From the IMG/VR virus record IMGVR_UViG_3300042549_005585, positions 1 through 64,000 of that record: a DNA stretch of 64,000 nucleotides; one strand, given 5' to 3'. This DNA is from a virus. Every line of letters begins with the position of its first letter. The first letter of the stretch is position 1. Of the stretch, positions 24,594 to 58,552 are shown one piece after another. The notes under the pieces are model-generated. The model ran no database searches. It was not told the DNA's origin and was given only the letters and a program-made list of their open reading frames with translations. The position numbers were made by a program, and so were the translations under genes.

Positions 24594-25739
24594 TTATTTA
24601 ATAATACCCGCTAATTTTTGTAAGCGGTTAATAACAGCATCGCTTTCTACAATTGTTTGCTTAGGAGCATTTCCAACTGCTTTAGAAGCGAAACCAATAG
24701 ATTCTTTCAATGAAGACTTCTTAGTCTCACTTACAGATTCTTTTAATGTTGCGTAAATGTTTTTAACCTCATTGATTGTAGTTGCACGATCAAATGCGTT
24801 AATAACTTTTACTTTTTGTGATTCAGCTAATGACTTAGCTTTGAAAATCTTATTAACGTAAAGTAATTTAGCGTTTAATAAGTTCACTTCGTTAATTGAT
24901 TCTTTCAATGTTTTGATAACACTGATAGCTTCTTTTAACTCTTTTTCAGCTTTTTCTGCTTTCTTTTCTGCCTTAGCAGCTTTTTCTTCAGCAGCTTTTT
25001 CCTTAGCTTTTTCAGCTTTGGTTTTTTCTTTTTTAGCTTCGTAAAGGTCATCATTAGATTCTTCATCTAATTCAGATAACATTTCGTCGATGTCGGTAAT
25101 TTCTGTGTCAGAAGTTTCCATGTCAGTTGGTTCCATATCAGGAGCTTCAGATCCACTTTGTCCCATTAACTCAGCTACAACATCATGAATGATGTCTCTT
25201 AACTCGTCAACAGTTAACTCAGTGATTTCTTCGTCACCTTCTTCTTCACCTTCTTCTTCTTCTTCTTCCTCTTTCAATTCGTCATCTTTAGCTTCTTCCA
25301 TGGTATCATCTTCTTCTGCTGCTTCCATCATAGAATCATCATCAGATTTTGCTTCTTCCATGTCAGCGCCTTTGTCTTCTCCCTCTAAAGCTTCAAGTTC
25401 AGCTAAGATTTCGTCTAAAGATTCTTCCATATCGTAAGTTTCGTCCATTTGGTCGTCACCTTCTTTAAGTTTGTCGTCTTCATCCTTATCAGCTGTTTCT
25501 TGCATTTCTTCTTTGTTAGAAGCAGGCTTCTTAATGCGATACTCTTCGATTCCTTCTTCCATCTCATCTTTAACTTCGTCTAATTCTTCCTCAACTTCTT
25601 CAGAAAGTTTTAACGAAATCATTTCTTTGATTCGTGGAGCAAAGGTTTCTTCAAGAGCGGCTTTTGCATTAGCTAACGCGGCTTCGCGTACAGCTTTAGC
25701 ATCAGCGATCGCTTGTGCGAACAATGCTTGATTTGACAT
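24594..25739 (-). CDS. prohead scaffolding protein (gp22-like)
   Basis: Very acidic coiled coil between protease and MCP; many xxE sites. Confidence 0.8.
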   Translation of the reverse strand: MSNQALFAQAIADAKAVREAALANAKAALEETFAPRIKEMISLKLSEEVEEELDEVKDEMEEGIEEYRIKKPASNKEEMQETADKDEDDKLKEGDDQMDETYDMEESLDEILAELEALEGEDKGADMEEAKSDDDSMMEAAEEDDTMEEAKDDELKEEEEEEEGEEEGDEEITELTVDELRDIIHDVVAELMGQSGSEAPDMEPTDMETSDTEITDIDEMLSELDEESNDDLYEAKKEKTKAEKAKEKAAEEKAAKAEKKAEKAEKELKEAISVIKTLKESINEVNLLNAKLLYVNKIFKAKSLAESQKVKVINAFDRATTINEVKNIYATLKESVSETKKSSLKESIGFASKAVGNAPKQTIVESDAVINRLQKLAGIIK

Positions 25740-25870: not shown

Positions 25871-26515
25871 CTAGATAGGCTTTATGCAACATATCCCAGT
25901 TTGAGAACAAATAATCTCAGATATTAACTGGTTGATTTTACCATATTTGCTAGGTTTAGCAATTGTTGTTGGGTCATATGACTCGTTCATTGTTCCACCT
26001 GTTGGACGCATAAATGCACCTTGTGTAGATGGTGTTGATACAAAATCCCAACATAACAATTCGAAATCGTCTTGTACCTCTACTGTACCTTCACCTAATG
26101 GTTTAACTGAACCCATACCACGAGATGAAATACCTACAGTAATATTATTAACAAATAACTGCTTTAAGATATTACCACTTGGTGTCGGTAATACTTCGAT
26201 TCTACCCATTAAATCATCTCCGTCCCACCATAATTTAGTAATGTTATGGCATACGTTTTTAAGATTGATAATAGATGAATCTGGGTGATCTAGTTCGCCT
26301 AATGCTCTATTTTCAGCGATAGGTCCACTAACATACTTTTCTACTTCACGTTTTAAAGTATCTTTAGGATAAACACGTCCATTTTGATTTTTAGCATCAG
26401 CACGTTGTACCACACCCTCAACAATTAAGTTTTTAGATGGATTAAACTTCGCCTCATTCAATGATTGAGGTGATGGCTGGAATGAGAAATATTCTATTAA
26501 AACTTGTTTGGACAT
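25871..26515 (-). CDS. prohead protease, T4 gp21-like
   Basis: NQNGRVYP, ALGELDHP, GISSRGMGS, WDFVSTPS. Confidence 0.95.
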   Translation of the reverse strand: MSKQVLIEYFSFQPSPQSLNEAKFNPSKNLIVEGVVQRADAKNQNGRVYPKDTLKREVEKYVSGPIAENRALGELDHPDSSIINLKNVCHNITKLWWDGDDLMGRIEVLPTPSGNILKQLFVNNITVGISSRGMGSVKPLGEGTVEVQDDFELLCWDFVSTPSTQGAFMRPTGGTMNESYDPTTIAKPSKYGKINQLISEIICSQTGICCIKPI

Positions 26516-27811: not shown

Positions 27812-28024
27812 TTATTTTGGGTTATATAATCCTTGTCTTACAAGTGATTGGATAATAGCGAATACAGCATCTTGATCACTATACTCATAAAACTTAGCTA
27901 AATCCTTTACATATCCTAATACTTTAGAATCAAGTTCAGGGTTAACAGCCTCTTTAACTTCCATATTTTCGTTTATGTTAGCCTTAGCGTTAAATACGAA
28001 TTTTTTATAGTCAAAATTATCCAT
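27812..28024 (-). CDS. small protein with FDYKKF leader
   Basis: MDNFDYKKFV...INE. Confidence 0.7.
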   Translation of the reverse strand: MDNFDYKKFVFNAKANINENMEVKEAVNPELDSKVLGYVKDLAKFYEYSDQDAVFAIIQSLVRQGLYNPK

Positions 28025-28035
28025 TGTTATTTTAT

Positions 28036-28551
28036 TTAATATTCAGGGTTTCTATCTTTTTCATCAAACGCACCTTGTATGTAAGCGTATCTACTTTCAT
28101 TTCCTCCATCCCATACATTGTAGTTTTCATCATCATCCTTTCCAGTAAAGAAAATAATATCATATACTTCATCATAAAACTTAGTGTCAGTAGCCATTAG
28201 TTTTTCAAATTTTTCTAATGTATTAGGTCTAAGTTTAAATGCTATATAATTATCAGCTCCTGGTTTGTTTATTTTATATTCTTTCCATAATTGCTTATAG
28301 TCTATTGCTTTAGACTTACGGTTAGGAACAGAAGGAGCATTTGTGAAACCAAAATGAGATACAGCGTAATTATTTTTTACTTTACCTCCAGCAAGTTGTG
28401 GAGCGTCTTCTTTCTTGATTTTTTTAAATGCTTTAGCAGTAGCGATTTGTGGATTGGAAACACCAGGAGCAAAACCAGCACCTGTACCAGTACCAGACAT
28501 TTCTTTTACTAGTTGTGTAGTATACTCCTTAATATATTTTCTAATGTCCAT
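28036..28551 (-). CDS. putative processed head protein with internal EYKINKP
   Basis: YIKE, LVKE and LWKEYKINKPG sites. Confidence 0.65.
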   Translation of the reverse strand: MDIRKYIKEYTTQLVKEMSGTGTGAGFAPGVSNPQIATAKAFKKIKKEDAPQLAGGKVKNNYAVSHFGFTNAPSVPNRKSKAIDYKQLWKEYKINKPGADNYIAFKLRPNTLEKFEKLMATDTKFYDEVYDIIFFTGKDDDENYNVWDGGNESRYAYIQGAFDEKDRNPEY

Positions 28552-33096: not shown

Positions 33097-33264
33097 TTAT
33101 TTTCCTGAAAGACGTTGTTTAATCCTGTTTGGATCTATTTTTTTAGTGTCTGTTTTTGTACTAGTTAGGGGCTTTTTTGTTTCAGCTGTTTCCTTCATTG
33201 CTTTAGAATAAGGACCTAACTTATTGTCTTGTAAATACTTCTTGTAATCGAAATTGTCTGCCAT
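33097..33264 (-). CDS. 55-aa basic protein with FDYKK leader (not in ORF track)
   Basis: MADNFDYKKYLQDNKLGPYSKAMKETAETKKPLTSTKTDTKKIDPNRIKQRLSGK. Confidence 0.7.
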   Translation of the reverse strand: MADNFDYKKYLQDNKLGPYSKAMKETAETKKPLTSTKTDTKKIDPNRIKQRLSGK

Positions 33265-33949: not shown

Positions 33950-34798
33950 TTATTTTATAATTCCAGCGTAATATTTCATTTTATTAATGATATACTCATC
34001 TAATTGTTCCTCATCACTTGGTTCTTCTCCTGGTTCTTCAATTGGTGGAGGTGGAGGAGCTGATTGAGCATCTATTTTTTGCAGATATGATGATTTAGAT
34101 ACTAGATCAGCAATACGTTGTTCTAATGATACTTTCAAGTCACGTAAACGTTGTAATTCATCACTTGGTCTATCCTTAATATCTCCAGCTGTTGGTCTTG
34201 ATTTTCTTAATGATAAGATATTTCCTCTAGTCGCAGCTAAACGACGTTGTAATTCACTATACTTTAATGAGTCCTCAAAATCTTGATCTGATATTTTAGG
34301 AGCAAGGATTGGTTCTGCTTTTTCTATCTCATCATCTGATGGTTCCTCTTCTGGTTCTTCCTCGTCTGATTTTCTTTTGCTTAGTTTAGTTGTACCAACA
34401 AACAAATCATCTTCATTATCAGGTAAATCTAACACATCATCTTCGCTTGGTTCTTCTTCTGGTTCTTCTTCTGGTTGAACTGAAGTTGAGCGTAATAGAT
34501 TTTGTTTTAGGTCTGGGATTAGAGTGAATGACTTTCCAGGTACTGTTTCTTTCTCTATTTTACTCTTTAACAATTCAATCTCCATTGGTTCAACACCTTG
34601 ATCAGCTGCTTGTGAAACAAAATAATTGATGATTTGTTGACGTCTATCATCCTTGTAATCAGATGGATTCTTAATTCTGTTTTCCAAGTCAGGAAACTCA
34701 GGATTAAGTTTATATTTTTCCTTTGCTATTCTAGCCAATTCACTAACGCGAAATGACTGCTGCTCAGTTACGAATTTTTTATAATCAAAATCTGCCAT
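33950..34798 (-). CDS. acidic protein with FDYKKF leader and scaffold-like C-terminus
   Basis: MADFDYKKFVTE...INKMKYYAGIIK. Confidence 0.65.
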   Translation of the reverse strand: MADFDYKKFVTEQQSFRVSELARIAKEKYKLNPEFPDLENRIKNPSDYKDDRRQQIINYFVSQAADQGVEPMEIELLKSKIEKETVPGKSFTLIPDLKQNLLRSTSVQPEEEPEEEPSEDDVLDLPDNEDDLFVGTTKLSKRKSDEEEPEEEPSDDEIEKAEPILAPKISDQDFEDSLKYSELQRRLAATRGNILSLRKSRPTAGDIKDRPSDELQRLRDLKVSLEQRIADLVSKSSYLQKIDAQSAPPPPPIEEPGEEPSDEEQLDEYIINKMKYYAGIIK

Positions 34799-35638: not shown

Positions 35639-36625
35639 CTATTTGTTGGAAATTTTACCTAATGTATCTTTAGCCCACTTCTCTTGACCAGCACTTAACT
35701 CACCATTAATAGCGTTTTGAATGAAGTCACGTAGTTGTGGATAAGGTAATTCAACTAATTTAGCAATGAATATATCACGAACATATGGATCACTAACATT
35801 GCTTTTGTTATAAAACTTATTGATGGCATCTGAAATAGCATCTAACATGAATTTACCATAACGTAAATCGTCTGGTTCGTTTCTTAGTTTATCAACACTA
35901 GCAACTGATGCTTGGTTTAATGCTTTATTTTTACTCCATCCTCTTGATCCAATAACTGAGTATATTCCTTTAACTATTTCATGTATTAGAATAGGAAAGT
36001 TAATAGCGCGTGCTTTTACTATCCATTGTTTGTTTGCTTTATCATATACAGGTAAACTACTACCTCCAGGCATGTTATTATCATTAGCAATACCAGCTAA
36101 TATTTGAGCGATAAAATTCTCATCATCATATCCACCTAAAGCAACGTCTAATATTTTACCATATTTGTCTACTAATGTTGGGTCAACACTATCCAAATAA
36201 TCTTTCATTAATAAAAATGAACGAGAACCTCTAACACCAGCACCTTGAGTTAACGCGTTTATTAAACGACGTTTAGCATCCATATCTTCTTTCTCTTCAG
36301 GTGAATATCCTTGTTCGCCTGGTTTGTCTTGGAATTCACCTCTAGGAATAGCGGTGTTTTGAGACATTGGCTCTATCTTAGCATCAATCTTGATATTGTA
36401 TTTGTCAACAATTGGGTAAGCATCTTTAACTACCTCAACTGCTAATTGCTCCAATTCATCTTGGTATCCACGTTCTGCTCTAGCAATTTCACTTGCTAAA
36501 CGCATTGTTTCACCACCATAATTTTTGGCGCCTTGTTTTTCTCTAGCTTGTTGAGATAGTCCCTTTAGCTTCCCCATTGTTTGGGGAGTGAACATTTTTT
36601 CGTATTCCTTCTCCTGTAATTTCAT
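35639..36625 (-). CDS. hypothetical protein (degenerate HExxK motif)
   Basis: MKLQE start; KRRLINALTQG; FPILIHEIVKG. Confidence 0.65.
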   Translation of the reverse strand: MKLQEKEYEKMFTPQTMGKLKGLSQQAREKQGAKNYGGETMRLASEIARAERGYQDELEQLAVEVVKDAYPIVDKYNIKIDAKIEPMSQNTAIPRGEFQDKPGEQGYSPEEKEDMDAKRRLINALTQGAGVRGSRSFLLMKDYLDSVDPTLVDKYGKILDVALGGYDDENFIAQILAGIANDNNMPGGSSLPVYDKANKQWIVKARAINFPILIHEIVKGIYSVIGSRGWSKNKALNQASVASVDKLRNEPDDLRYGKFMLDAISDAINKFYNKSNVSDPYVRDIFIAKLVELPYPQLRDFIQNAINGELSAGQEKWAKDTLGKISNK

Positions 36626-36887: not shown

Positions 36888-38198
36888 TTACCTATTTGCC
36901 AATAAATATTCAGATACGTATATTCCATGCGCACCACTTACTGTGATACCACGAGCAGATAAAGCATCACCTACAAAGTGTACATTTGGATAATCATTTA
37001 ATGACAAATCATTATAATTAACTAACGGTTCAGGGCTCAAATACTTTACTTCAGGTACATACATTCCCCAATCATCACCAAATTCAAATACAGTATTCAT
37101 ATTATCAATAAAGTCAGTAATATAAGTTAAATATTCTCCATAAGCTTCAGCTAATGGTACTAAAGTATCTATTGGATAAGATGTCACTGTAGTACCTTCT
37201 GATGTTAATCCTGGAATACGAGTACGATTAGGTGAATAGTATAATCCTTTTCCATTGACTTGTAATTTAGATACTGCATCTCTACACCACTTAAATGGAT
37301 CATCAATACCTTTAATTTCCATTAAGATACCAAAGTTAGTCATATCATTTCTAAATTCCTCACCTTTCTTAGCGTGACCATTATAACTTAAATCACCATA
37401 TGTTTCTTCTACCGCTACATAAGCTGCATTGTTGTTAGTACAAAATGAGCGAATAGAAACATTATCATGTTTTTGATATAACTTAAAATCATAAGATACA
37501 TCAATCAATTTTTGGAAATATTTTTGTGGCGCTTCAAATCGAACACCAATTTGTACTGCTTTAGCTTCAGTTGGCAATTTGTAAGTGTCAGATAATTGTT
37601 GAGCAAAATCAATACCTGATTTACCTACTGCAAATATCAATTCATCATAAGCATTTAACGCTACAAACTCATCTTCACCTTGTTTATACTTGATAATTAA
37701 GTCTTGAAAATCAATATTAGTAATAGTAGTGTTCCAACTAAAGTTAACACCTTTATCTAACAAATATTGATACCAGTTTTTAGCAATCTCATGTAAATAG
37801 TTTGAACCAATATGCCATACAAGCGACATACGTAAGTCAAAATATGGTTTAATAAAGTCAGGTTCTTGTTTAGGATCAGAACATGATATGTCTTCTGGTT
37901 TAGGGTGGAAACGAGTAAAATTAGCTACTACTTCATTCATTAATTCCATAGCTTTTTCTTCACCACAATACTTGGACAATTGTCCACCTTGTACTGTTGA
38001 TACTACTAATTTACCATCTGACCAACCACCAGCACCTAACATTCCTGTCATTACCTCTTCAGGTAAACGATTAATTGGATCATTACCTCTATCAATGATA
38101 GTGATTAATTCACCAGGGTATCCATTATCTACTAATTTAGTTGCCGCATTAATACCAGCTACTCCAGCTCCAACAATTAAAATTCTTTTATTTTCCAT
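36888..38198 (-). CDS. FAD-dependent oxidoreductase (COG2509-like)
   Basis: IVGAGVAG, GMLGAGGWSDGK, IGVRFE, RSFCTN, PEVKY, FVGD...RGI. Confidence 0.85.
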   Translation of the reverse strand: MENKRILIVGAGVAGINAATKLVDNGYPGELITIIDRGNDPINRLPEEVMTGMLGAGGWSDGKLVVSTVQGGQLSKYCGEEKAMELMNEVVANFTRFHPKPEDISCSDPKQEPDFIKPYFDLRMSLVWHIGSNYLHEIAKNWYQYLLDKGVNFSWNTTITNIDFQDLIIKYKQGEDEFVALNAYDELIFAVGKSGIDFAQQLSDTYKLPTEAKAVQIGVRFEAPQKYFQKLIDVSYDFKLYQKHDNVSIRSFCTNNNAAYVAVEETYGDLSYNGHAKKGEEFRNDMTNFGILMEIKGIDDPFKWCRDAVSKLQVNGKGLYYSPNRTRIPGLTSEGTTVTSYPIDTLVPLAEAYGEYLTYITDFIDNMNTVFEFGDDWGMYVPEVKYLSPEPLVNYNDLSLNDYPNVHFVGDALSARGITVSGAHGIYVSEYLLANR

Positions 38199-38550
38199 TT
38201 AGTCTTTCATTTATACGTTGTCTAATAATTTGTTCATCTTGTTCTGTTGGAGTATAGTCATTCATAAATTGTGATGGGACTCCTTCCCAAGCACTACCAT
38301 AGTATGTCATATTAAATCCTCTATTGAGGCATTCCTGGTATATTTCTTCATATCGATTCTTAAGATATAATAACTTATCGTAAAAGAATGCTACATGTCC
38401 TTTACCTAGTGTAAACATAGGAGGTATACTTTTCAAATTATACCTACCTCTAGTGATAAGATTAGGTACACGTTTAATTTCACGATGTTCTGCAATTAAG
38501 TGTTTATTAGTTAATTGCTGTGGTGGTATTGCTACATTAATTCTTGTCAT
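38188..38550 (-). CDS. denV: pyrimidine-dimer DNA glycosylase / endonuclease V
   Basis: MTRIN, HLIAEHREIKR, FTLGKGHV.FFYDKL.YL..RY, RI.ER. Confidence 0.92.
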   Translation of the reverse strand: MTRINVAIPPQQLTNKHLIAEHREIKRVPNLITRGRYNLKSIPPMFTLGKGHVAFFYDKLLYLKNRYEEIYQECLNRGFNMTYYGSAWEGVPSQFMNDYTPTEQDEQIIRQRINERLNGK

Positions 38551-38936: not shown

Positions 38937-38942
38937 CTAAGA

Positions 38943-38965
38943 TGGCCCACCTTTTGGGTGGGCCA
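38943..38965 (-). terminator. GC-rich hairpin, probable terminator of the cargo array
   Basis: TGGCCCACC-CAAAA-GGTGGGCCA followed by TCTTAGTTT. Confidence 0.65.
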
Positions 38966-39027
38966 CTACTCCGAATTATTTTATTGATGCGAACAGGTAA
39001 TGAATCTGTTCTGTATGAGTATAAATA

Positions 39028-39429
39028 TTAGTCTTCTATAAGATAATATTTAATAGAAATAGGATTATAATGGTCTTCTTCAGTTTTATAGGCAATATCT
39101 TTTAAAAATGATCCTTTATTTTCTTCAACATATTGATCCCATTCATTTTCTAAATACTCATCTTCTTCTTCCTGTTCCCAAGTTTCAAAACCTTTACCCA
39201 TTATTGTGATCACCATAGAATTATCATTTTCATCATCATCACTAACATCAACAAGCCATTCAAATGGTTCATAAGAATCATTTTTAACATTATCTGAACA
39301 GTATTTATCATTGATTATAGCACCATATTCTCCATCAGTTGTTTGGTCTGGTTCTACTATTTTTAGCTTATACTTTTTAGATGGGTTATTTATTTTATAT
39401 TCATTAAGTATATCTATTAATTTGATCAT
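39028..39429 (-). CDS. acidic EYKIN-leader protein (putative internal head cargo)
   Basis: MIKLIDILNEYKINNP. Confidence 0.75.
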   Translation of the reverse strand: MIKLIDILNEYKINNPSKKYKLKIVEPDQTTDGEYGAIINDKYCSDNVKNDSYEPFEWLVDVSDDDENDNSMVITIMGKGFETWEQEEEDEYLENEWDQYVEENKGSFLKDIAYKTEEDHYNPISIKYYLIED

Positions 39430-39430
39430 A

Positions 39431-40021
39431 TTATCGTTTTAATATTTTAAAGAAATCTTTAGTTGTGTCATTGTACTCCCACCAACCTTCACTTACATCT
39501 TCTTTCCATTGTCCTTTAATACATTCATAGTAATATTCATCATCTTCGTCTTTTTTTAATTCCCATATGTCACCAACAACAAATAAATGAGCAAAATTAT
39601 CAAATATTTCATCTTTAGCATAATACTCATCTTCACGTGTTCGATCAGTACATAGGTATATATCTTTTACTACTTCTATTAATGCTGGTGGGCGTGAGCC
39701 TGGTTTGTTAATTTGGTATTCATCTAATTCTTCGTCTTCATCATCATCTTCTTCTTCTTCATCATAAACACTTTCATCACCTCCACTCTCAACATATTTC
39801 CAATTTTGTTTTATATAATAATATTCACTTGTGTCATCTACATAACTGGTAAAAAATTCAAAAAACTCATCTTTACTTATATTTTTTCCTTCAGGAAATG
39901 TTTTAAGAAAATCAGCCATTATATCTTCATCTTCATAACTTTTAACAATATCTAATACTAATTTATAATTACTATTAGGTCGATTAATTTTATACTCATT
40001 GAGTAAATCTATTAGTTTCAT
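39431..40021 (-). CDS. two-module acidic EYKIN-leader protein
   Basis: MKLIDLLNEYKINRP plus internal LDEYQINKP. Confidence 0.75.
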   Translation of the reverse strand: MKLIDLLNEYKINRPNSNYKLVLDIVKSYEDEDIMADFLKTFPEGKNISKDEFFEFFTSYVDDTSEYYYIKQNWKYVESGGDESVYDEEEEDDDEDEELDEYQINKPGSRPPALIEVVKDIYLCTDRTREDEYYAKDEIFDNFAHLFVVGDIWELKKDEDDEYYYECIKGQWKEDVSEGWWEYNDTTKDFFKILKR

Positions 40022-40022
40022 A

Positions 40023-40382
40023 TTATTTATCTTTTACCATGTAATAAGTTGTTTGTCCTCTATCATCATCATAGTCATCCTCAATTGACACATCAAAATT
40101 TTTCAATGCTCTTAATATTTCTCTATCTTCAATCCATTCCCAATAACCATATTTCATCATTACTCGATCTAATGATGGTGATAATCTAAGTGAATCATCA
40201 AGTCTATTTTCTACTGGTTTTAGAGCGTTATAAACACGAATTAGTAATGATAATTCTTTATTATCTATTTTACGTAGTTTTGGATTGTAATCAACCCATA
40301 ACTTACCTTTAGATGAGTCAGTATTAAATAGTATTGGTTTGTTTATTTCATACTCGTTGAGTAAATCTATTAGTTTGATCAT
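40023..40382 (-). CDS. EYKIN-leader protein
   Basis: MIKLIDLLNEYEINKP. Confidence 0.75.
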   Translation of the reverse strand: MIKLIDLLNEYEINKPILFNTDSSKGKLWVDYNPKLRKIDNKELSLLIRVYNALKPVENRLDDSLRLSPSLDRVMMKYGYWEWIEDREILRALKNFDVSIEDDYDDDRGQTTYYMVKDK

Positions 40383-40385
40383 AGT

Positions 40386-40745
40386 TTATACTATTTGTAC
40401 ATTAAATATTCTTTTTAAATCATCTATATTAGCTGTTACTCCAACATAATCACCTAATGCTTCAATCTTACCATTAGCTTTATCTCTAATAACCTTAAAA
40501 ACTTCAGGAGCATATTCTTCAAAAGCGTCATCTTCATCCATAAAATCACTAATATCATTATTTAATATTAATCCATATGAAACATTATTATCACTATCTA
40601 TATCACCTGTGTATTCTCCACTATATTCTTCATTATCAACATCTAATAAAGTTTCTCCATCATCATATATAACAAGAGTAGCGTCTGGGTATTTGTATGG
40701 GTTATTTACTTTATACTCGTTGAGTAAATCTATTAGTTTAATCAT
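40386..40745 (-). CDS. acidic EYKIN-leader protein
   Basis: MIKLIDLLNEYKVNNP. Confidence 0.75.
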   Translation of the reverse strand: MIKLIDLLNEYKVNNPYKYPDATLVIYDDGETLLDVDNEEYSGEYTGDIDSDNNVSYGLILNNDISDFMDEDDAFEEYAPEVFKVIRDKANGKIEALGDYVGVTANIDDLKRIFNVQIV

Positions 40746-40748
40746 ATA

Positions 40749-41228
40749 CTAAAAATAGTTAAAAAGTAAAACAACTACTCCTCCGTCTCTAAATCCTTCC
40801 TCATCAGTTACAATAACACCATCTAATTGATCATATTCGTTAGGTGATAAACGATCCCACTTAGTGATAACAGCATATCGTTCTTCACCTTGGTAACGTG
40901 TTCTTACTTCAGTATCACCATCTCCTTTAACAACAAGCATAGGCATATCCATATTCATTGAACCATGAACATATCCTTCGTCTTTAAGGAACTTATCAGC
41001 CAAATGTATTGCTCTAAAGTCTTCTGTTGGTTTAAACTCAACAGCGTATTGTACTGGTTTGTTAATTATAGCTGCTGTATTTAGTTTGAGTTCAGGATGA
41101 GCAGATTTAATTTCAGCGGGTGTTTTACCCACTAAATCCTTTCTAACTATTGGTTCATCAGGATTACCTAGTTGATTTACAACATCATCACCGAATGCTT
41201 CTTTAAGTATGTCTATTAGTTTTTTCAT
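40749..41228 (-). CDS. leader-bearing hypothetical protein
   Basis: MKKLIDILKE. Confidence 0.75.
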   Translation of the reverse strand: MKKLIDILKEAFGDDVVNQLGNPDEPIVRKDLVGKTPAEIKSAHPELKLNTAAIINKPVQYAVEFKPTEDFRAIHLADKFLKDEGYVHGSMNMDMPMLVVKGDGDTEVRTRYQGEERYAVITKWDRLSPNEYDQLDGVIVTDEEGFRDGGVVVLLFNYF

Positions 41229-41587
41229 TAGTATAAAATTAGTAAAAGTATATTATCGTCTTCTTTAATAATTAGTTTAGAATATTTTCTTATGTCCATA
41301 TCAACATTACCTATATCACTAGCTTCATCTTGTCCATCATATAAATAAGCTGCGAATTTATGATGAAAATTTTTGATAACTTGTTCCATTTTATTGAATT
41401 GTTCTTCATTTATACCTTGATCATCTATAAACTTTTCTTTATCATCATATCCCCAAGTTTTTAACATATCTTCTATGCTGTTAGCTTTTGACATAGATGG
41501 ATACCAATAAAATAATTCAGGGTCGTATTTGAATACAGCGGGACTATTTATTTTGTATTCGTCTAATATTTCTGCTAGTTTAATCAT
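41228..41587 (-). CDS. EYKIN-leader protein
   Basis: MIKLAEILDEYKINSP. Confidence 0.75.
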   Translation of the reverse strand: MIKLAEILDEYKINSPAVFKYDPELFYWYPSMSKANSIEDMLKTWGYDDKEKFIDDQGINEEQFNKMEQVIKNFHHKFAAYLYDGQDEASDIGNVDMDIRKYSKLIIKEDDNILLLILY

Positions 41588-44025
41588 AGTTTAATTGTTT
41601 TAATATCAACAAAGTCTCTTTCAGTTTCATCATATACTCTTACATTAGCGTATAAACCATCAATTTCAGGATCTAAATTTATCCTTTCAATTTCAGTGTA
41701 ACGAGGTATATTGTCATCTCCTAAATTTTGTTCTATTACAGCCCAATATTCATAAGATTTTCTATATAAGTATTGTCCTTTTAGTGTATCTAAAGCTAAT
41801 TTCTCAGCATTAGTGAATGTTGTTTCAACTTTTTCCTGTTGGAATTGGTTTGGTCCTTCATACCAAGATATTCTATAGTTTCCTGAGTTTGGTTTGTTAA
41901 TTTTATACTCATTTAAACCATCTTTAAATGGAAATTCATCTGGGTGTGATGTTAAGAAAAAGCTCATTTCTGATGTGGCAAAATCTTCAATATCTTCATC
42001 TGTAGCGTTTTCAAAATCAAAGTCACTTAATCCATTTAATGTAGATTCTTCCCAACCTTCTTCATCACTCATAAAAGTTTCTACATCATCAATATATTCA
42101 GGATCAATTACTGATTCAAGGTAACTATGTATTAGACCTTTATCTATAACATAGTATCTGTTTCCATCTTCATCTTTTTCTAAACTAATATACTTGTTAC
42201 GTTTTGGTTTATTAATTTTATACTCTTTAATTTTGTTTGAATCTCTAATAACATCTGTTTTAAGTAAGAAATCAATTAAACCATCAAGTTCTCCTATCCA
42301 TATGTTTTTTCCTACTTCACTTTTTAACCAAGTATCAATTTCATTAGTGTTTACTGTTTCTACTTGACTTATATCAACTATATCATTTAACATTAAGCAA
42401 GCATCAGCTACATCCTCACCATATAATCTGTTAACATTATGATAATCATTCATACCATACTCATACTTAACCCAATCAGCTACTTTATATGTTTTAGATG
42501 GTTTGTTGATTTTGTATTCATTAATAAAGTCAGACTTAAGTAAAGTATTGTTTACTTGTTGAACAAAATCATTCTCATTAAATATCTCAGATGGTTCTAT
42601 ATAGTAGTCCACTACTTTTTCTATAAGAAGTGGAATATATACATCATAATAATCTTTTGTATTGCGTGTATGAGGAAGGTCTGGGTGTTCTTTAGTTTTG
42701 ATATAGTTGAATACTTTGTTTCGTATTTCATTTATATCAATAGCTTCAAAATATGCTTTCCAAATAACTTTGTTTATATAACGTTTTAAGTCAACATTAT
42801 CATTAAGATAGTCTAATACATCCTCACCACTAATTGTACTTACATTCAATGGGCTAGCAATAATTTCCTTACCATCTTTTTCAAACTCATAATGGTTAAC
42901 AACCATATGTTCTTTGATAAAATCAATTATGATGTCGTGAGTATCATACTTCTCATCCTTAACAAATTCAACAGCAGGAGTATCATAATATTCTTCATGG
43001 TCTTTAACTAGACTAACTATATGTCTGTTAATAGCATCCTTCACATCGTTCATAAAGTCAGATGGAAGTGAATCAGTAGGTTTATTAATCTTATATTCGT
43101 TAAGTGGCTGATTTTTTTTAATTAACACCATACCAAGTAAGTACTCAAGTATTTCATCTATTGTGTTATCTTTCAAATTACTATGAGGAGCATTTTTCCA
43201 ACGTTCAATATCAGCTTTAGTTACTGTGTTACGGTCAAAAATATTCATATTGAAATACAATATAGTTAACGCGTTTAATTCGTCTGAGTATGGACCTAAA
43301 CGATATTCTGCTTTGTCCCAATCAAGTTCATATGGATCTTCAGTAAAATAATTATACACCCAATCTGCTATTTTATATCCAGGATCAGGAGTGTTAATTT
43401 TATATTCTTCAACATTTTCATTAAGGGCATTGGTGTTTGTCATTAATATAGTGTCATCAATAACAATTGCTTTTACATCACGTTCACGTAAGTGTTTAAC
43501 AATTCTATTTAATACACTTTCCTTAAATGTATTTGACATTAATGAATTATCAGGATAATATCCTAAAGCATCATCATGTTGTAAACGGTATTGAGGTGAG
43601 TTATCAATTCTTAACTCAACAAACTTAGTGTTAGGCATTACTTTATAACTAACATTATCATACCCATCAATGCTGATAGTTTTCTTTTCGTTGTTAGTAT
43701 TAGTAATTATATTCTCATTAATGTTGTTGTATGGTTGTAATTCTTCTTCTGTCCACCATGTTGGACTAGCATCTTTATTATGCTCTAACCATTGAATCAA
43801 ATACCAAGGTTCATTTATTGTATTATCATCTTCATATGGATGTTGAAATATATATTCCCGATTAGTGGGATTTGATATTACCGCTTCCCAATTAGGTCTT
43901 CTATCTAATATTTTACATGATTCTTCATCACCATATAATTCACGTACAATTTCACCTACCTTATACTTGTAAGTAGTAGGTTTGTTTACTTTGTACTCGT
44001 TTAATATTTCTGTTAGTTTAATCAT
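41584..44025 (-). CDS. 813-aa putative polyprotein of about 7 acidic modules separated by xxE|YK[IV]NxP
   Basis: Six copies of EYK[IV]N[KT]P plus one INE junction. Confidence 0.75.
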   Translation of the reverse strand: MIKLTEILNEYKVNKPTTYKYKVGEIVRELYGDEESCKILDRRPNWEAVISNPTNREYIFQHPYEDDNTINEPWYLIQWLEHNKDASPTWWTEEELQPYNNINENIITNTNNEKKTISIDGYDNVSYKVMPNTKFVELRIDNSPQYRLQHDDALGYYPDNSLMSNTFKESVLNRIVKHLRERDVKAIVIDDTILMTNTNALNENVEEYKINTPDPGYKIADWVYNYFTEDPYELDWDKAEYRLGPYSDELNALTILYFNMNIFDRNTVTKADIERWKNAPHSNLKDNTIDEILEYLLGMVLIKKNQPLNEYKINKPTDSLPSDFMNDVKDAINRHIVSLVKDHEEYYDTPAVEFVKDEKYDTHDIIIDFIKEHMVVNHYEFEKDGKEIIASPLNVSTISGEDVLDYLNDNVDLKRYINKVIWKAYFEAIDINEIRNKVFNYIKTKEHPDLPHTRNTKDYYDVYIPLLIEKVVDYYIEPSEIFNENDFVQQVNNTLLKSDFINEYKINKPSKTYKVADWVKYEYGMNDYHNVNRLYGEDVADACLMLNDIVDISQVETVNTNEIDTWLKSEVGKNIWIGELDGLIDFLLKTDVIRDSNKIKEYKINKPKRNKYISLEKDEDGNRYYVIDKGLIHSYLESVIDPEYIDDVETFMSDEEGWEESTLNGLSDFDFENATDEDIEDFATSEMSFFLTSHPDEFPFKDGLNEYKINKPNSGNYRISWYEGPNQFQQEKVETTFTNAEKLALDTLKGQYLYRKSYEYWAVIEQNLGDDNIPRYTEIERINLDPEIDGLYANVRVYDETERDFVDIKTIKL

Positions 44026-46075
44026 TCTTGATATTAGCTAATTGTTTTAACCTATCCGCTTCTTCTTTTAACACACTAGAGGCAGGTGAGCCATTAAGTG
44101 TTACTTCTTTAGCGCTATAAACACGTTTAGGTGATTCATTGTCTGAGAAATATCCTCCACTTATACTTTCATCATTAATGAATGATTCATCACCATCAAT
44201 ATTTGATTCTACTACTTTACCATTACTATCTAATAATACCCAATTTGTGTAACGTCCTTCAGTTTCTTCTACTGGTAGTAGAGTATAATAGTTTCCTCCT
44301 GATTGGATAAAGAATGGTAATGCGTAAAGCATTGTTAAGTATTTTTGATCCCCATTCACCTTATTAGCTAGATCAAGTAATGTTTTTCTTTCTTGTGGTG
44401 ATAATGTAAGCCACTGTTTAGCTAAAATAGGAGCAGGATCTACATCTTGGTTTGGTGAATCAAAAAATGTAGCCATTTTCTCTTCATCAGGATTAAGATT
44501 TTCTCCAAATTTCCAGTTAACAAATAACTTACTATATATTGAAAATAAATTTTTTAATTTATCATTATCAATGTACTTGATAGCAGATGGAGGTAAGTAA
44601 TCTAATTCTTTAAGATGTTTCTTAACAAACTCCTTAGATGATTTTTCTCCAAAATATTTTTCTACTAACTCAAGAGATAAAACATTATCATAAGCATCCA
44701 TATACTTTTCCTTAGCAGGCTCATCTAGATACTGAATGAAAGGTAATGGTATAGGTGTTTTACTATAGTCTGTATGTCTAAAACGATATATAGCATAACG
44801 ACTAGCTAATGATGGATAATCTTTTAAGTCAGCGTAAGTGAATTTTTGACCACTATCAATAGCAATATTAGCTAAAGTAGTAGTTCTACCTTCAAGTGAA
44901 ATCTTATATTTAGGTAATATGCTTAGTATGTCTTGTTTCAAAGCGTTTTTCATTGCTTTAGCTTGAACATACATTATTTTCTCATCTTGAGTTAATTCCT
45001 TAAATTCATCAACAGATAAATTTTTACCTTGAGCAAACTTTCTAGCACGTTCACTACCTGATAACGCTACTGGTTTGAATAATTCTTTTAAGTTTTTAAT
45101 TTTAGCCCAAGTGTCAGCAGGAACAATTTTAGATATATCATCCCAACTAGCGGCTTTATTATCTCCAGCATTATCAGCATTAGTGACTACATATGATTTA
45201 CCATCAGCATTAGCTTGCAAAGCGATTGCATGGTACGGATCATCAAAATAAGAATGTTCAGGAGCTGATGTTTTACTACGATCAAAAATAAAATAAAATG
45301 TAGGTGCTTCTTCTTTGAATCGATAATAATCGTAGTTAGTATTTCCGGGTTGTGCGACACACCAACCATATTTTTTTCTGTTAGTTGATGCTACTGTAGG
45401 ATTGTATTGAATACACTTATGTACTTCATCACACTTATAAACCTCAATATCTCCTTTACTATATATCTTATCAGCGTCAGTTTCAGCTAAGTTTTCACCT
45501 TCCTCTCCAACTTTAATTTGTGTTGGAAATAAAGCATCTAGCATTTGCTCTAAACTTTGCCATCTGTAATTACGAGGATCTAAATATAAATCATTAGCTA
45601 ACAAACGAGCAGGTATAAATTTCTTAACTTCCTCCTTAGTGAATCTTTCATCTTCAGTACCATTCTCAACAGCATACTTTAAATCTTTCTTCTTATTCAT
45701 GAAGCGAGCCACGTATGATTGAGCTGTAGTTTTGTCTATTTGCTCTTTATCAACAAATTTCTTAATGGCTTCTTTCTTAATTTTCTCCTCGTTTTGAGGT
45801 AAAGACTTAAGTAAGTTTACCATATCATTGTAAGAATACTTATCAATGTTAAGATAATTATTATTTTGTTTTAAATCATCTGGTAGTACAATTATGTCTA
45901 GTTTCTGTGCTAATGATGATTTCTTTTGATCAAATTGTTGAATTAATTGACGAGCAGCATTAACAGCGGCTTTATCATTAGAATCAATACCCCATCTAGC
46001 AATAGTATCATTTATTGTCTTTTCTGTGTATTCTCTTAGCAAAACTTCTTGTAATATATTGGATAATCGCGTCAT
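44018..46075 (-). CDS. large leader-bearing hypothetical protein (WC-motif type)
   Basis: MTRLSNILQE..LLRE start; YGWCVA..YDYYR..TFYFIFD; C-terminal LKEEADRLKQLANIK. Confidence 0.7.
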   Translation of the reverse strand: MTRLSNILQEVLLREYTEKTINDTIARWGIDSNDKAAVNAARQLIQQFDQKKSSLAQKLDIIVLPDDLKQNNNYLNIDKYSYNDMVNLLKSLPQNEEKIKKEAIKKFVDKEQIDKTTAQSYVARFMNKKKDLKYAVENGTEDERFTKEEVKKFIPARLLANDLYLDPRNYRWQSLEQMLDALFPTQIKVGEEGENLAETDADKIYSKGDIEVYKCDEVHKCIQYNPTVASTNRKKYGWCVAQPGNTNYDYYRFKEEAPTFYFIFDRSKTSAPEHSYFDDPYHAIALQANADGKSYVVTNADNAGDNKAASWDDISKIVPADTWAKIKNLKELFKPVALSGSERARKFAQGKNLSVDEFKELTQDEKIMYVQAKAMKNALKQDILSILPKYKISLEGRTTTLANIAIDSGQKFTYADLKDYPSLASRYAIYRFRHTDYSKTPIPLPFIQYLDEPAKEKYMDAYDNVLSLELVEKYFGEKSSKEFVKKHLKELDYLPPSAIKYIDNDKLKNLFSIYSKLFVNWKFGENLNPDEEKMATFFDSPNQDVDPAPILAKQWLTLSPQERKTLLDLANKVNGDQKYLTMLYALPFFIQSGGNYYTLLPVEETEGRYTNWVLLDSNGKVVESNIDGDESFINDESISGGYFSDNESPKRVYSAKEVTLNGSPASSVLKEEADRLKQLANIKND

Positions 46076-46100
46076 TGGTAGTAATATATTATAAATATGT

Positions 46101-46136
46101 AATAAAAATGCGCCTTATTGTTAGTAAGACGCATTA
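46101..46136 (-). terminator. intrinsic terminator
   Basis: AATGCGTCTTA-loop-TAAGGCGCATT followed by TTTATT. Confidence 0.75.
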
Positions 46137-47401: not shown

Positions 47402-48349
47402 TTAATCTATGTCAAGATCGATTGAGTCATCGTTCTTGTCTACTATAATGAAATCCTTGACTCCACTATCACTAGTCATGTAGATTCGAATATCATTTCC
47501 GTACGCTTCAATTTTAGTGACAGTAACTTTATCTCCTTTAGAAAAATTACCCATTCCACTTGCTACAGTAAATGTATCTCCATCTTTGATATGAGCGGCA
47601 GATACCGCTTCGTTTGTTTTTTGTTTCATAACCTTGTTTATAATTCTTTGTTTAATTTCTTTAATAACACTACGTCTTCTCTTTTGCTCAGCCAACGGAG
47701 CCTCTTCCTCACCTGGTAATGCTAAACTACCTGGTTCACCTTCACCTTCACCAGGCGCTGGTGTTTCAGGAGCTGCTTCAGGTGCTGTTTCACCTCCTAT
47801 AGGTGTTTCAGGAGCAGGAGCTTCAGCTGATGTTTCTGTTCCTACTGCTTCAATAGGTTTAGGAGAGCCTATAGATAATAGAGTAGCAATTTTCTCAACC
47901 GCGTTCTCAAACTCACCTAAATTAAGTAAGTAATAACGTCTACCTCCTGCTTTTATCTCATATGTTTTACCCATAAACTTCATATAGAAGGATTGGTTAT
48001 TATGAAGTACAACTTTAAAAGTAGTTGGTTTAGGCGCTATAATATAGATACCTGTAACGTAATTTCTAAAGTCAGGAGTCATTAAATCCTCAATAGTACG
48101 ATTAAGTGAAGGGTATGTCTGTAAAATATATTCCAATGGATTAGACTCAAAAGTGATAGGTTCATCTTTTGGTTCTTCAATAGGTGTCTCTTCAGGAGTA
48201 TCTACAGGTGTTTCTTCAGGTGTGTCTACAGGTGTTTCTTCAGGAGTTTCCTCATCAACCTCCATAAGATCTACATCATGTCCTTTGATACGCTCTTGAA
48301 CTTTTTGTATTATTGCATTACGCAATATGTCTTTTTTAGTTTGTTCCAT
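47402..48349 (-). CDS. hypothetical protein with Pro/Glu/Thr linkers
   Basis: TPEETPVD tandem repeats; second domain after LAE/TNE sites. Confidence 0.65.
   Translation of the reverse strand: MEQTKKDILRNAIIQKVQERIKGHDVDLMEVDEETPEETPVDTPEETPVDTPEETPIEEPKDEPITFESNPLEYILQTYPSLNRTIEDLMTPDFRNYVTGIYIIAPKPTTFKVVLHNNQSFYMKFMGKTYEIKAGGRRYYLLNLGEFENAVEKIATLLSIGSPKPIEAVGTETSAEAPAPETPIGGETAPEAAPETPAPGEGEGEPGSLALPGEEEAPLAEQKRRRSVIKEIKQRIINKVMKQKTNEAVSAAHIKDGDTFTVASGMGNFSKGDKVTVTKIEAYGNDIRIYMTSDSGVKDFIIVDKNDDSIDLDID
48181..48250. repeat. 24-bp coding tandem repeat (TPEETPVD, about 3 copies)
   Basis: caggtgtttcttcagg... repeated units. Confidence 0.7.
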
Positions 48350-48711
48350 TAGTATGTTTCTTCATTGTTTTTTTCAGTCATATACTCAGTTACACTGTGT
48401 ATGTAGTCTGAAGCTAATGTAATGTAAGCTGATATCCAACCTGGAAGTTCAGTTCCTGGTTGTATCATTCTGTATGCTTTAGCTCCATTCATAAGCATAT
48501 CTCTTAATTCACCTTTAGCCATTGTAGCTTCATGGTCAGATGATGGTTGACCTAAAACATCTCCACCTTCGTTAGTTGTAGCTTTGCTAATTGCTTTACG
48601 ACGCTTAAGAAGATATTTGTCTGTTTTATCTACTTTTCCATCATTGTTGATGTCAGAATCTTCTTGTCCTACAGGATCCATTGATTCTAATATTTTGGAT
48701 AGTTTAATCAT
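48349..48711 (-). CDS. leader-bearing protein with DxDxNxDG Ca-binding-like loop
   Basis: [10 protein letters not shown]; [24 protein letters not shown]. Confidence 0.7.
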
Positions 48712-51974: not shown

Positions 51975-52394
51975 TTATTTTTTTATCCAATGATATGTGT
52001 CAGCCATTGTCACTAATTTATATCCATCAGGTAAATTCTTTTCCATATATGTTTTATATACACGAGCACGTTTTTGTTCTGTGGGTCTAGCTATAAAATC
52101 ATCTGGTTGGTGTTTTTTGACAAAGTCTAATCCTATTTCAAATACTGTAGACAACACACGTAATGCTACATTCTCTTGAGTATCTCTTCCCATTTCCTCA
52201 ACAGTATTAAATAATAATTCATATGTGTTATTACCATTCCAAGTGATACCAACTGTGTATTTGTTTTCAGGAGTACGAAATGAATAGAAGTAGTTACCAT
52301 CATCATCAACAAAATCATATTTCCATTTATATGGGTTTTGGATTTCACCAACTTCAGTTAGTACTTCTTGTAATATGTTAGTTAACTTAATCAC
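51975..52394 (-). CDS. leader-bearing hypothetical protein
   Basis: MIKLTNILQEVLTEVGE; paralogous to 54251..54619. Confidence 0.7.
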   Translation of the reverse strand: MIKLTNILQEVLTEVGEIQNPYKWKYDFVDDDGNYFYSFRTPENKYTVGITWNGNNTYELLFNTVEEMGRDTQENVALRVLSTVFEIGLDFVKKHQPDDFIARPTEQKRARVYKTYMEKNLPDGYKLVTMADTYHWIKK

Positions 52395-52750
52395 TAATAT
52401 GGTTTTGTTAATTGAACGTTACCAATAGGAGTAAAGTTTCTTACTCCTTCAATTCGTTTAATATCGTTAACTATAGTTTTAAGTGTTTGACTTGAGAATC
52501 CTTTATATGGATGGGGGTCAATCTTTAGATTAAGTTCTGTCTTATAGAATTTAGCACCTGTAACATCTCCTGATGTAGGCAATTCCTTAGATGTTGCTAC
52601 TGTAACACCTGCTATAGAACGTATATCAGATAATATTTCTGTTTGTCCGCGGTTTTCAGTATCAGTAATTAAAATACCTCTAAACTTGTAAACGTTTGGG
52701 TTTTCCGCTTCGGATAGTAACTCCGCTAATATGGTAGATAATTTAACCAT
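52394..52750 (-). CDS. leader-bearing hypothetical protein
   Basis: MVKLSTILAELLSE; DIRSIAGV/DIKRIEGV internal duplication. Confidence 0.7.
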   Translation of the reverse strand: MVKLSTILAELLSEAENPNVYKFRGILITDTENRGQTEILSDIRSIAGVTVATSKELPTSGDVTGAKFYKTELNLKIDPHPYKGFSSQTLKTIVNDIKRIEGVRNFTPIGNVQLTKPY

Positions 52751-58168: not shown

Positions 58169-58552
58169 TTACTCACCTTTTGTGATATTTTCATCTGGGA
58201 CTATGATAGCATTTATGCTTGATAAACCTGCGAGTTTAGCTGCAGTATATCTATGGTGACCATCTAAAATTTGAAATTTATTTCCTTTTTTACGAACTAA
58301 TATTGGATCTATTGTTTTGCCACTCTTATATTTACTAACTAAGCGCTTAACAATTTTAATAGATTCAGGTGATTTCATCTTTATAGCGGGTTCATAGCGA
58401 ACCAGCTTGCTAAGGGGTATCTGTACTTTAGGAGCATTCTTAATATCTTCATCAGAAAAATCTAAATCTGCTCCTACATCTTTCCCTTTATTATATAAGA
58501 CTATTTTAATATCTTCTTTTATCTCTTTTAATATGTTTATTAATTTAATCAT
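58169..58552 (-). CDS. ParB/Srx N-terminal domain protein with MIKL..IL.E leader
   Basis: PILV....FQILDGHHRY.AA...G...I.AII. Confidence 0.8.
   Translation of the reverse strand: MIKLINILKEIKEDIKIVLYNKGKDVGADLDFSDEDIKNAPKVQIPLSKLVRYEPAIKMKSPESIKIVKRLVSKYKSGKTIDPILVRKKGNKFQILDGHHRYTAAKLAGLSSINAIIVPDENITKGE

Follow-up and report, generated by a model that had tools for sequence, protein, structure and literature searches.

A putative T4-type head-cargo system in an uncultured freshwater phage: small acidic modules chained by a protease-site-like joint behind a common leader

The array of small genes considered here occupies positions 39028-44025 on the minus strand of a 64,000-nucleotide stretch of viral DNA (positions 1 to 64,000 of the IMG/VR record IMGVR_UViG_3300042549_005585, hereafter the window), and its acidic products are joined to a common N-terminal leader, and in places to one another, by a single short motif, E-Y-[KEQ]-[IV]-N-x-P. 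The window covers 64 kb of a contig 79.8 kb long that belongs to an uncultured T4-like phage, whose closest cultured counterpart is Flavobacterium phage immuto (57% identity of the capsid protein). Of 88 genes, only 2 have a sequence resembling the Shine-Dalgarno element, and the regions around starts are rich in A, which is consistent with a Bacteroidota host; DNA of the polyprotein encoded in the array was detected in lake and freshwater metagenomes of 19 studies. The phage is a freshwater T4-like one that probably infects Bacteroidota.

Within 39028-44025 the motif occurs 12 times, always on the minus strand, and a degenerate DNA pattern for it has 13 matches in the entire window, again all on the minus strand, while shuffled sequences are expected to give 0.01 and none of 100 shuffles reached 13. 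Since individual copies use differing synonymous codons, it is the peptide that is conserved. Seven tandem minus-strand genes begin with M(I)KLxx[IL]LxE, and in six of the seven this leader goes on as Y[KE][IV]NxP; additional copies are internal, five in the gene for a protein of 813 amino acids (aa) (Glu codons at 43407, 43098, 42519, 42225 and 41910) and one in the 196-aa gene (39721, EYQINKP). The tandem leaders, their YK[IV]NxP-like continuation and the internal copies had been pointed out in a first-pass annotation made from the letters of the window, and all of them were located where it had placed them. The components are listed below, a slash marking the supposed cut.

41584-44025, minus strand: 813-aa polyprotein, a 10-aa leader plus six modules
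43996-44025, minus strand: leader of the polyprotein, MIKLTEILNE
43978-43998, minus strand: joint 1, ILNE/YKVNKP, directly after the leader
43405-43995, minus strand: module 1
43387-43407, minus strand: joint 2, NVEE/YKINTP, predicted local distance difference test score (pLDDT) <50
43096-43404, minus strand: module 2
43078-43098, minus strand: joint 3, PLNE/YKINKP
42517-43095, minus strand: module 3
42499-42519, minus strand: joint 4, FINE/YKINKP
42223-42516, minus strand: module 4
42205-42225, minus strand: joint 5, KIKE/YKINKP
41908-42222, minus strand: module 5
41890-41910, minus strand: joint 6, GLNE/YKINKP
41587-41907, minus strand: module 6
41228-41587, minus strand: 119-aa single-module gene, MIKLAEILDE/YKINSP
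40749-41228, minus strand: 159-aa gene having the leader without the tag, MKKLIDILKE/AFGDD; its homologue in the related contig L046 is 93% identical
40386-40745, minus strand: 119-aa single-module gene, MIKLIDLLNE/YKVNNP
40023-40382, minus strand: 119-aa single-module gene, MIKLIDLLNE/YEINKP
39431-40021, minus strand: 196-aa two-module gene with the internal joint LDE/YQINKP at 39701-39721
39028-39429, minus strand: 133-aa single-module gene, the last of the array

The leader in the form MIKLIDILNE can be aligned position for position with the capsid-targeting sequence (CTS) of T4, MKTYQEFIAE, having hydrophobic residues at positions 4, 7 and 8, an acidic residue at position 6 and Glu at position 10. 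For the T4 CTS it was established that residues 4 and 7 are responsible for targeting, and residues 8 and 10 for processing (PMC9026906). Four further genes outside the array (48349-48711, 51975-52394, 52394-52750 and 58169-58552) carry the same leader lacking the YKINKP tag, thus leader and tag are separable units.

Properties of the joint were assessed on 185 distinct examples from this phage and its relatives, chosen solely on Glu at P1 and on the residues from P1' to P6', positions being counted from the supposed cut. P3, which was left unconstrained, turned out to be Leu in 50% and Ile in 33% of them (together 83%), Val in 5% and Met in 4%, being aliphatic in 92%, P2 is Asn in 48% and Asp in 20% (together 68%), and positions P4 to P10 are unconserved at internal joints. 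The T4 protease gp21 cleaves after Glu in [ILV]xE motifs. The preference for Leu or Ile at P3 before Glu is thus the same as the [LI]-x-E rule of gp21, and the earlier suggestion that the joints fit sites of a T4-type protease holds on this larger set. On the other side of the supposed cut, P1' to P6' are strongly conserved as [YI]-K-[IV]-N-x-P, whereas T4 gp21 and the proteases of giant phages have few determinants there (PMC9026906, PMC10052503). These residues may constitute an extended protease site or a tag retained on the mature N-terminus. At P1' this phage has Tyr, whereas Ile or Val predominate among relatives; Thr and Met are met as well, and one relative has the form ARVTPV. Joints with EY, EI and ET are mixed within a single array of the relative L108, implying that P1' is an interchangeable, tolerant position. 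A concerted evolution of joints with a strict reader of P1' was considered, as single proteins can be all Y, all I/T or ARVTPV, but was dropped because of this mixture. Two other explanations of the tag were rejected, namely an N-degron, a newly exposed Tyr that would set the time of degradation through ClpS (at this position Ile or Val is found in most of the clade, and Ala in some relatives), and ribosome skipping of the 2A type (the NPGP core is absent).

Being cut at the motif, the products of the array give 13 modules of 92-197 aa with an isoelectric point of 4.1-5.2, containing 17-33% of Asp plus Glu and 10-18% of Phe, Trp and Tyr, in agreement with the acidic and aromatic-rich units of roughly 90-200 aa anticipated by the first-pass annotation. 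It also stated that the modules share no visible similarity except for one pair; modules 2 and 4 of the polyprotein are indeed the sole clear paralogues (29% identity over 105 aa, E 8e-10), and two weaker pairs (E 4e-6 and 2e-4) may reflect distant kinship or an effect of composition. An AlphaFold2 (AF2) model of the 813-aa protein was built from a 17-sequence alignment and is a prediction of moderate quality (pLDDT 59; predicted template-modelling score 0.26), in which all six joints fall into coil devoid of secondary structure with pLDDT <50 and are separated by dissimilar predicted domains with pLDDT 70-87. A regular repeat protein with the motif as its structural element, an outcome named in advance as fatal to the idea of released modules, is rejected on these grounds, given that the modules are dissimilar and the joints lie in predicted coil.

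Structure prediction combined with Foldseek, proposed at the first pass for each module, was applied to the whole polyprotein; dissimilar domains were predicted within it and no fold could be matched to them. Foldseek with the 813-aa model found nothing at E <= 0.001 in PDB and BFVD, apart from which module 1 displayed a weak resemblance to SH3/chromo-barrels only; the search of ESM Atlas returned unnamed viral clusters only, and no family was matched by Pfam or PHROG to any array protein or to the 685-aa protein encoded next to them. As judged by ratios of nonsynonymous to synonymous substitution rates (dN/dS), which range from 0.11 to 0.46 for modules versus 0.05-0.16 for flanking genes, the modules are under purifying selection. 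Inside module bodies [LIV]xE is mildly depleted (20 sites observed versus 29.8 expected, P 0.02; 77 versus 63.6 in control proteins), consistent with exposure to a gp21-type protease.

Modules are exchanged as cassettes. Variable module content between related genomes had been suggested as a check of the first-pass annotation, and the comparison that we ran revealed modules added, dropped, replaced, fused and split at joints. The most informative partner is a viral contig (L004/L046) with flanking genes 84-98% identical to those of the window. It is devoid of module 4, the gap lying exactly between joints 4 and 5, as well as of the last gene, 39028-39429; altogether five of its modules have no counterpart in the window and four modules of the window are missing from it. 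The stand-alone module 40023-40382 constitutes the C-terminal part of a 269-aa fusion in this contig, and in L108 it stands third among the modules of a fusion, while the second module of the 196-aa gene is represented in L046 by two stand-alone genes. The body of the 41228-41587 gene is replaced there behind the same leader, and L046 homologues of the 685-aa and 328-aa proteins described below end in an extra module behind IHE/YNINKP and LKE/YKVNKP. Independent lake metagenomes add further changes: one contig skips 41888-42202 in frame (315 nucleotides, i.e., module 5), in contigs of two lake studies the body of 41228-41587 is replaced with retention of the leader, and in contigs of three lake studies the gene 39028-39429 is skipped. 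Twenty homologous polyproteins comprise from five to eight modules each. Thus, independently folding units, as predicted, are set in one frame and occur as free genes in relatives, so that the modular “library” character ascribed to the locus, with the same modules free or fused and content varying among relatives, is supported. Two minor details are worth recording. In three relatives (P0003, P0005 and P0010) module 1 (43405-43995) has an extra joint NIDE/YKIN[SK]P near residue 104-111, where the window reads NINENIITNT; this joint may have decayed in the window or come with a cassette inserted in relatives. In L108 (3013-3110) a mini-module of 17 residues is enclosed between two joints, MKKLTDILNE/IKINNPLAVAARDRASKEQEMDE/IKINQP.

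The sole copy of the motif outside the array is located in a gene between those for portal and protease. The head module to which this gene belongs is of the T4 type, it is encoded on the minus strand and includes large terminase, portal (PF07230, Portal_T4), prohead protease, a very acidic scaffold-like protein and the capsid protein (PF07068, Gp23, the major capsid protein), the families being assigned by profile matches. Its members relevant to the array are the following.

28036-28551, minus strand: 171-aa head-module protein between portal and protease
28261-28281, minus strand: 13th copy of the motif, LWKE/YKINKPG, within the 171-aa protein and followed by an acidic aromatic-rich module
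25871-26515, minus strand: prohead protease of T4 gp21 type, Peptidase_S77 (PF03420, 104 bits with a cut-off of 27; phrog_207, 3e-55)
24594-25739, minus strand: acidic scaffold-like protein with net charge -61 and C-terminus RLQKLAGIIK
25524-25544, minus strand: degenerate joint IEE/YRIKKP in the scaffold-like protein

The profile matches leave the gp21-like protease, proposed at 25871 from the translation, in its place. Its C-terminus is a Cys-rich tail, IICSQTGICCIKPI, and similar tails were found in the motif-bearing relatives G001, G002 and G003 and not in motif-less immuto (only four cases versus one). The 171-aa protein corresponds to a polyprotein of 640 aa in one relative (G003), where six joints are present, and in another (G001) two head-module proteins, the 171-aa homologue included, have two joints each; the first head-module joint is orthologous, reading LWKE/VKVNKPG versus LWKE/YKINKPG. 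Together with the motif in the portal-protease gene and IEE/YRIKKP in the scaffold, these jointed head-module polyproteins support the link to head morphogenesis that the first-pass annotation had drawn. In five related records the pattern is found 5-23 times, on the coding strand only, with zero matches of the control, and scanning viral contigs for the Ile variant revealed many in which several E[IV]K[IV]NxP joints are accompanied by MIKLxxILxE leaders. The 160-kb genome of immuto contains zero copies of the motif. Searching cultured phages by blastn and tblastn with the array, the polyprotein and a 25-aa leader gave no match, and in searches of this kind the 685-aa protein had a single match in one uncultured 595-kb phage, itself free of the motif. 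The motif strings were found in no phage paper by the literature search; neither did the literature searched describe interchangeable, individually conserved modules chained by a standard joint.

The array forms the body of an operon of about 7 kb, as follows from a structural-gene promoter-like signal, the motif ATATTTAT, at its head and from bracketing hairpins. Features of the operon and its surroundings are:

46107-46135, minus strand: terminator-like hairpin closing the upstream unit
46091-46098, minus strand: promoter-like motif ATATTTAT at the operon head, 23 nucleotides 5' of the 685-aa gene
44018-46075, minus strand: 685-aa protein, first gene of the operon, leader MTRLSNILQE; its C-terminus RLKQLANIKND resembles that of the scaffold
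38942-38966, minus strand: GC-rich hairpin of 10 pairs downstream of the array
38188-38550, minus strand: denV, pyrimidine-dimer glycosylase (PF03013, 4e-14), two genes downstream of the array
35639-36625: conserved 328-aa protein with no family matched, to which relatives add one to three C-terminal modules via the same joint

There are 27 copies of ATATTTAT on the coding strand and 0 on the other one, mostly intergenic and 12-40 nucleotides upstream of starts (33031, 31405, 29439, 27677, 21027, 12052 and 46098 are examples); it precedes genes of terminase, portal, head and tail and is found nowhere within the array. By its distribution this motif is a candidate core of the late promoter, the T4 late promoter TATAAATA not being in use here, with 2 coding-strand copies only. 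On the T4 map ipIII and ipII are followed by denV, and the array here is likewise situated just upstream of denV.

The family of the 685-aa protein counts 277 members, and in relatives such a member is embedded in longer jointed chains, which reach 1967 aa and contain as many as nine joints. Its AF2 model has pLDDT 91, and the search by Foldseek and VIA-wide, PDB included, yielded a best Z of 4.7 with no fold assigned; Pfam applied to ten distant homologues gave nothing useful. Residues Cys239, Arg252, Phe260, Tyr261 and Asn302 are invariant in 62 homologues, and the protein may be an enzyme. Homologues of the 328-aa protein with added modules reach 446 aa in L046, 663 aa in P0020 and 587 aa in P0021, and this protein may also belong to the head.

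Taken together, these features are best accounted for, in our opinion and with moderate confidence, by an internal-protein system of the T4 type organised as protease-jointed polyproteins. The late operon (46098 to ~38942, minus strand) would supply the 685-aa protein, the six-module 813-aa polyprotein and the products of six small genes. The 10-residue leader M-I-K-L-x-[DE]-I-L-x-E would act as the T4 CTS does, bringing them into the prohead core, where the Peptidase_S77 prohead protease would cut after Glu in [LI]-[ND]-E, taking the leader off and severing the polyprotein at each joint. As a result about 14 folded acidic proteins of 10-22 kDa, mostly starting with Y-K-[IV]-N-x-P, would be released, stay in the head and probably exit with DNA; to judge from the sequences, these small acidic proteins are probably head cargo cut apart at maturation. 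With the same joint on every cassette, addition, loss, replacement, fusion and splitting might proceed, as we propose, without losing loading or release. What the analysis shows directly is the sequence features, their agreement with the T4 rules, the connection to the head module, the coil position of the joints, the exchange of cassettes and purifying selection, while loading, cutting, retention, ejection and a role in the host are the steps that we infer. A function as DNA mimics or anti-defence factors, suggested at the first pass from the acidity of the modules, is likewise a candidate role only. Relation to IPI, IPII, IPIII and Alt of T4 is a functional analogy, not homology.

Several observations weigh against this interpretation. 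The modules are strongly acidic, whereas T4 internal proteins are basic (PMC9026906), and neither any module nor the 685-aa protein was matched to a known family or fold by Pfam, PHROG, Foldseek or VIA. By sequence, no cultured relative possesses the system, the nearest one, immuto, being motif-free. The conserved primed side of the joint departs from the site logos of T4, phiKZ and SPN3US; the protease rule alone is insufficient for the strict Y/I-K-[IV]-N-x-P, which could mark a binding motif, and the tag is missing at LVVE/SS, where the major capsid protein is likely to be cut. The polyprotein model, derived from 17 sequences, is of moderate confidence only, and about 20 [LIV]xE sites are still present within modules.

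A bolder extension, which we offer as tentative, is that an uncultured T4-like clade employs a plug-in delivery format with one leader, a chain of unrelated cassettes and release by the head protease, and that the retained [YI]K[IV]NxP tag is functional by itself (e.g., as an exit or sorting signal, acting at ejection or within the host). The array would then represent a rapidly evolving library of proteins with novel folds, injected for host takeover or counter-defence.

Three other explanations were weighed, and each is less likely than an internal-protein system. The modules might serve as a disposable prohead core, loaded, cut, broken down and expelled before packaging like gp22, gp67 and gp68 of T4, so that their role would be that of a space-filling or size-setting scaffold. 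Acidity shared with the scaffold (net charge -61), the presence of the joint both there and in proteins that occupy the gp67/gp68 position, about 20 more [LIV]xE sites inside modules and the cutting of T4 core proteins into several fragments that leave the head (PMC9026906) speak for such a role; yet the modules are predicted as folded domains of dissimilar architecture, purifying selection acts on them (dN/dS 0.11-0.46), [LIV]xE is mildly depleted in their bodies, and fast turnover of cassettes between phages with ~90% identical flanks suits host-interaction genes better than filler, which makes a disposable core unlikely. Slightly less plausible still is a joint that stays uncut and functions as a docking motif or a standard linker, for instance binding a component of the head, portal or host, the 813-aa protein then being an intact chain of beads. 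The six conserved residues past the supposed cut are atypical of T4-type protease sites, and genes with the leader only (MKKLIDILKE/AFGDD and others) show the tag to be separable from it, but the unconstrained P3 obeys the gp21 rule in 83-92% of 185 joints, the joints are predicted coil, and the same module exists either free, as a gene behind the leader, or built into different chains, as expected if modules act singly. It seems very improbable that the tag owes its preservation mainly to recombination, as a site at which cassettes are shuffled, so that selection would act on the repeat in the DNA and not on the peptide. Indels and replacements do end within joint or leader coding sequence, and the leaders at 40355, 40718 and 39997 hardly differ, even in synonymous sites; however, most copies differ in synonymous codons, the peptide pattern persists across distant phages despite variable P1' (Y, I, V, T, M), and the tag is present as well where it stands singly and no shuffling occurs, for instance in the head-module protein.

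It is established that T-even phages place diverse cargo behind a conserved CTS (PMC3012670, PMC9026906), and the array resembles the system of IPI, IPII, IPIII and Alt in having a 10-residue N-terminal propeptide with hydrophobic residues 4, 7 and 8 and Glu 10, a Peptidase_S77 protease within a T4-type head module, a common leader on unrelated bodies, a cargo set varying among related phages and denV adjoining. It differs from T4 internal proteins in that no similarity of sequence or fold to them was found by Pfam, PHROG, Foldseek and VIA, the cargo is acidic rather than basic, it is also chained by means of internal joints, which number six here and reach nine in relatives, the supposed cut is followed by six conserved residues forming a tag, and modules are appended to conserved and head-module proteins; the system described here is a prediction from sequence. 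In giant phages gp21-type proteases cut at multiple sites, removing propeptides (PMC10052503), and their ejection and inner-body proteins (substrates of phiKZ gp175, 201phi2-1 and SPN3US gp245) offer a parallel: a diverged gp21-type protease recognises a short motif and cuts many head proteins after its Glu, some of them more than once, and many proteins are packaged for ejection (PMC10052503, PMC9026906). However, the cuts identified in giant phages take off N-terminal propeptides, which are cut up and discarded (PMC10052503), whereas the pieces between joints here look like folded conserved modules existing also as genes of their own, and the motif is A-x-E there, while here it is [LI]-[ND]-E together with the tag. 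RNA viruses and retroviruses likewise have polyproteins that contain several independent proteins in one frame with sites for the virus's own protease between them, but in the case of this DNA phage processing would occur inside the prohead, and the modules are accessory and interchangeable in contrast to a fixed replication or capsid set. Cargo-loading peptides of encapsulins also send unrelated cargo inside an HK97-fold shell by means of a short terminal peptide, though theirs is usually C-terminal, is not removed and works without protease or polyprotein.

If the proposed system is real, T4 capsid targeting would not be confined to single small proteins and would represent a general modular packaging format extending to polyproteins of up to ~2000 residues, in which standard joints let phages exchange delivered proteins as cassettes. 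Dozens of uncharacterised small proteins would become probable first-wave, pre-made factors in infections of freshwater Bacteroidota, and modules of the array type a rich hunting ground for new counter-defence functions. It would also raise a concrete question, how far site recognition by a gp21-type protease extends to the primed side, and would offer a ready-made natural scheme by which a single construct could bring several foreign proteins into phage heads.

Two further terminal motifs are associated with the proteins discussed above. RLQKLAGI(IK) ends the scaffold both here (24594-25739) and in immuto, the ends of the 282-aa (33950-34798) and 685-aa (44018-46075) proteins being similar, and in relatives (L104 132-416; L057, L069) RLQKLAGI stands directly before joints (KRLQKLAGISE/IKINKP) or is used as an N-terminal leader (MNEIKRLQQLAGIITE/VKVNKP). 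It may be a shell- or core-binding peptide and is a closer analogue of the encapsulin cargo-loading peptide. A second N-terminal tag, M(A)D(N)FDYKK[FY], is shared by three proteins near the head module (27812-28024, 33097-33264 and 33950-34798, all on the minus strand) and may represent another class of head address; giant jointed polyproteins of relatives (P0024-P0034) begin with a similar M[DE]YK[DK][IF]F.PETL.

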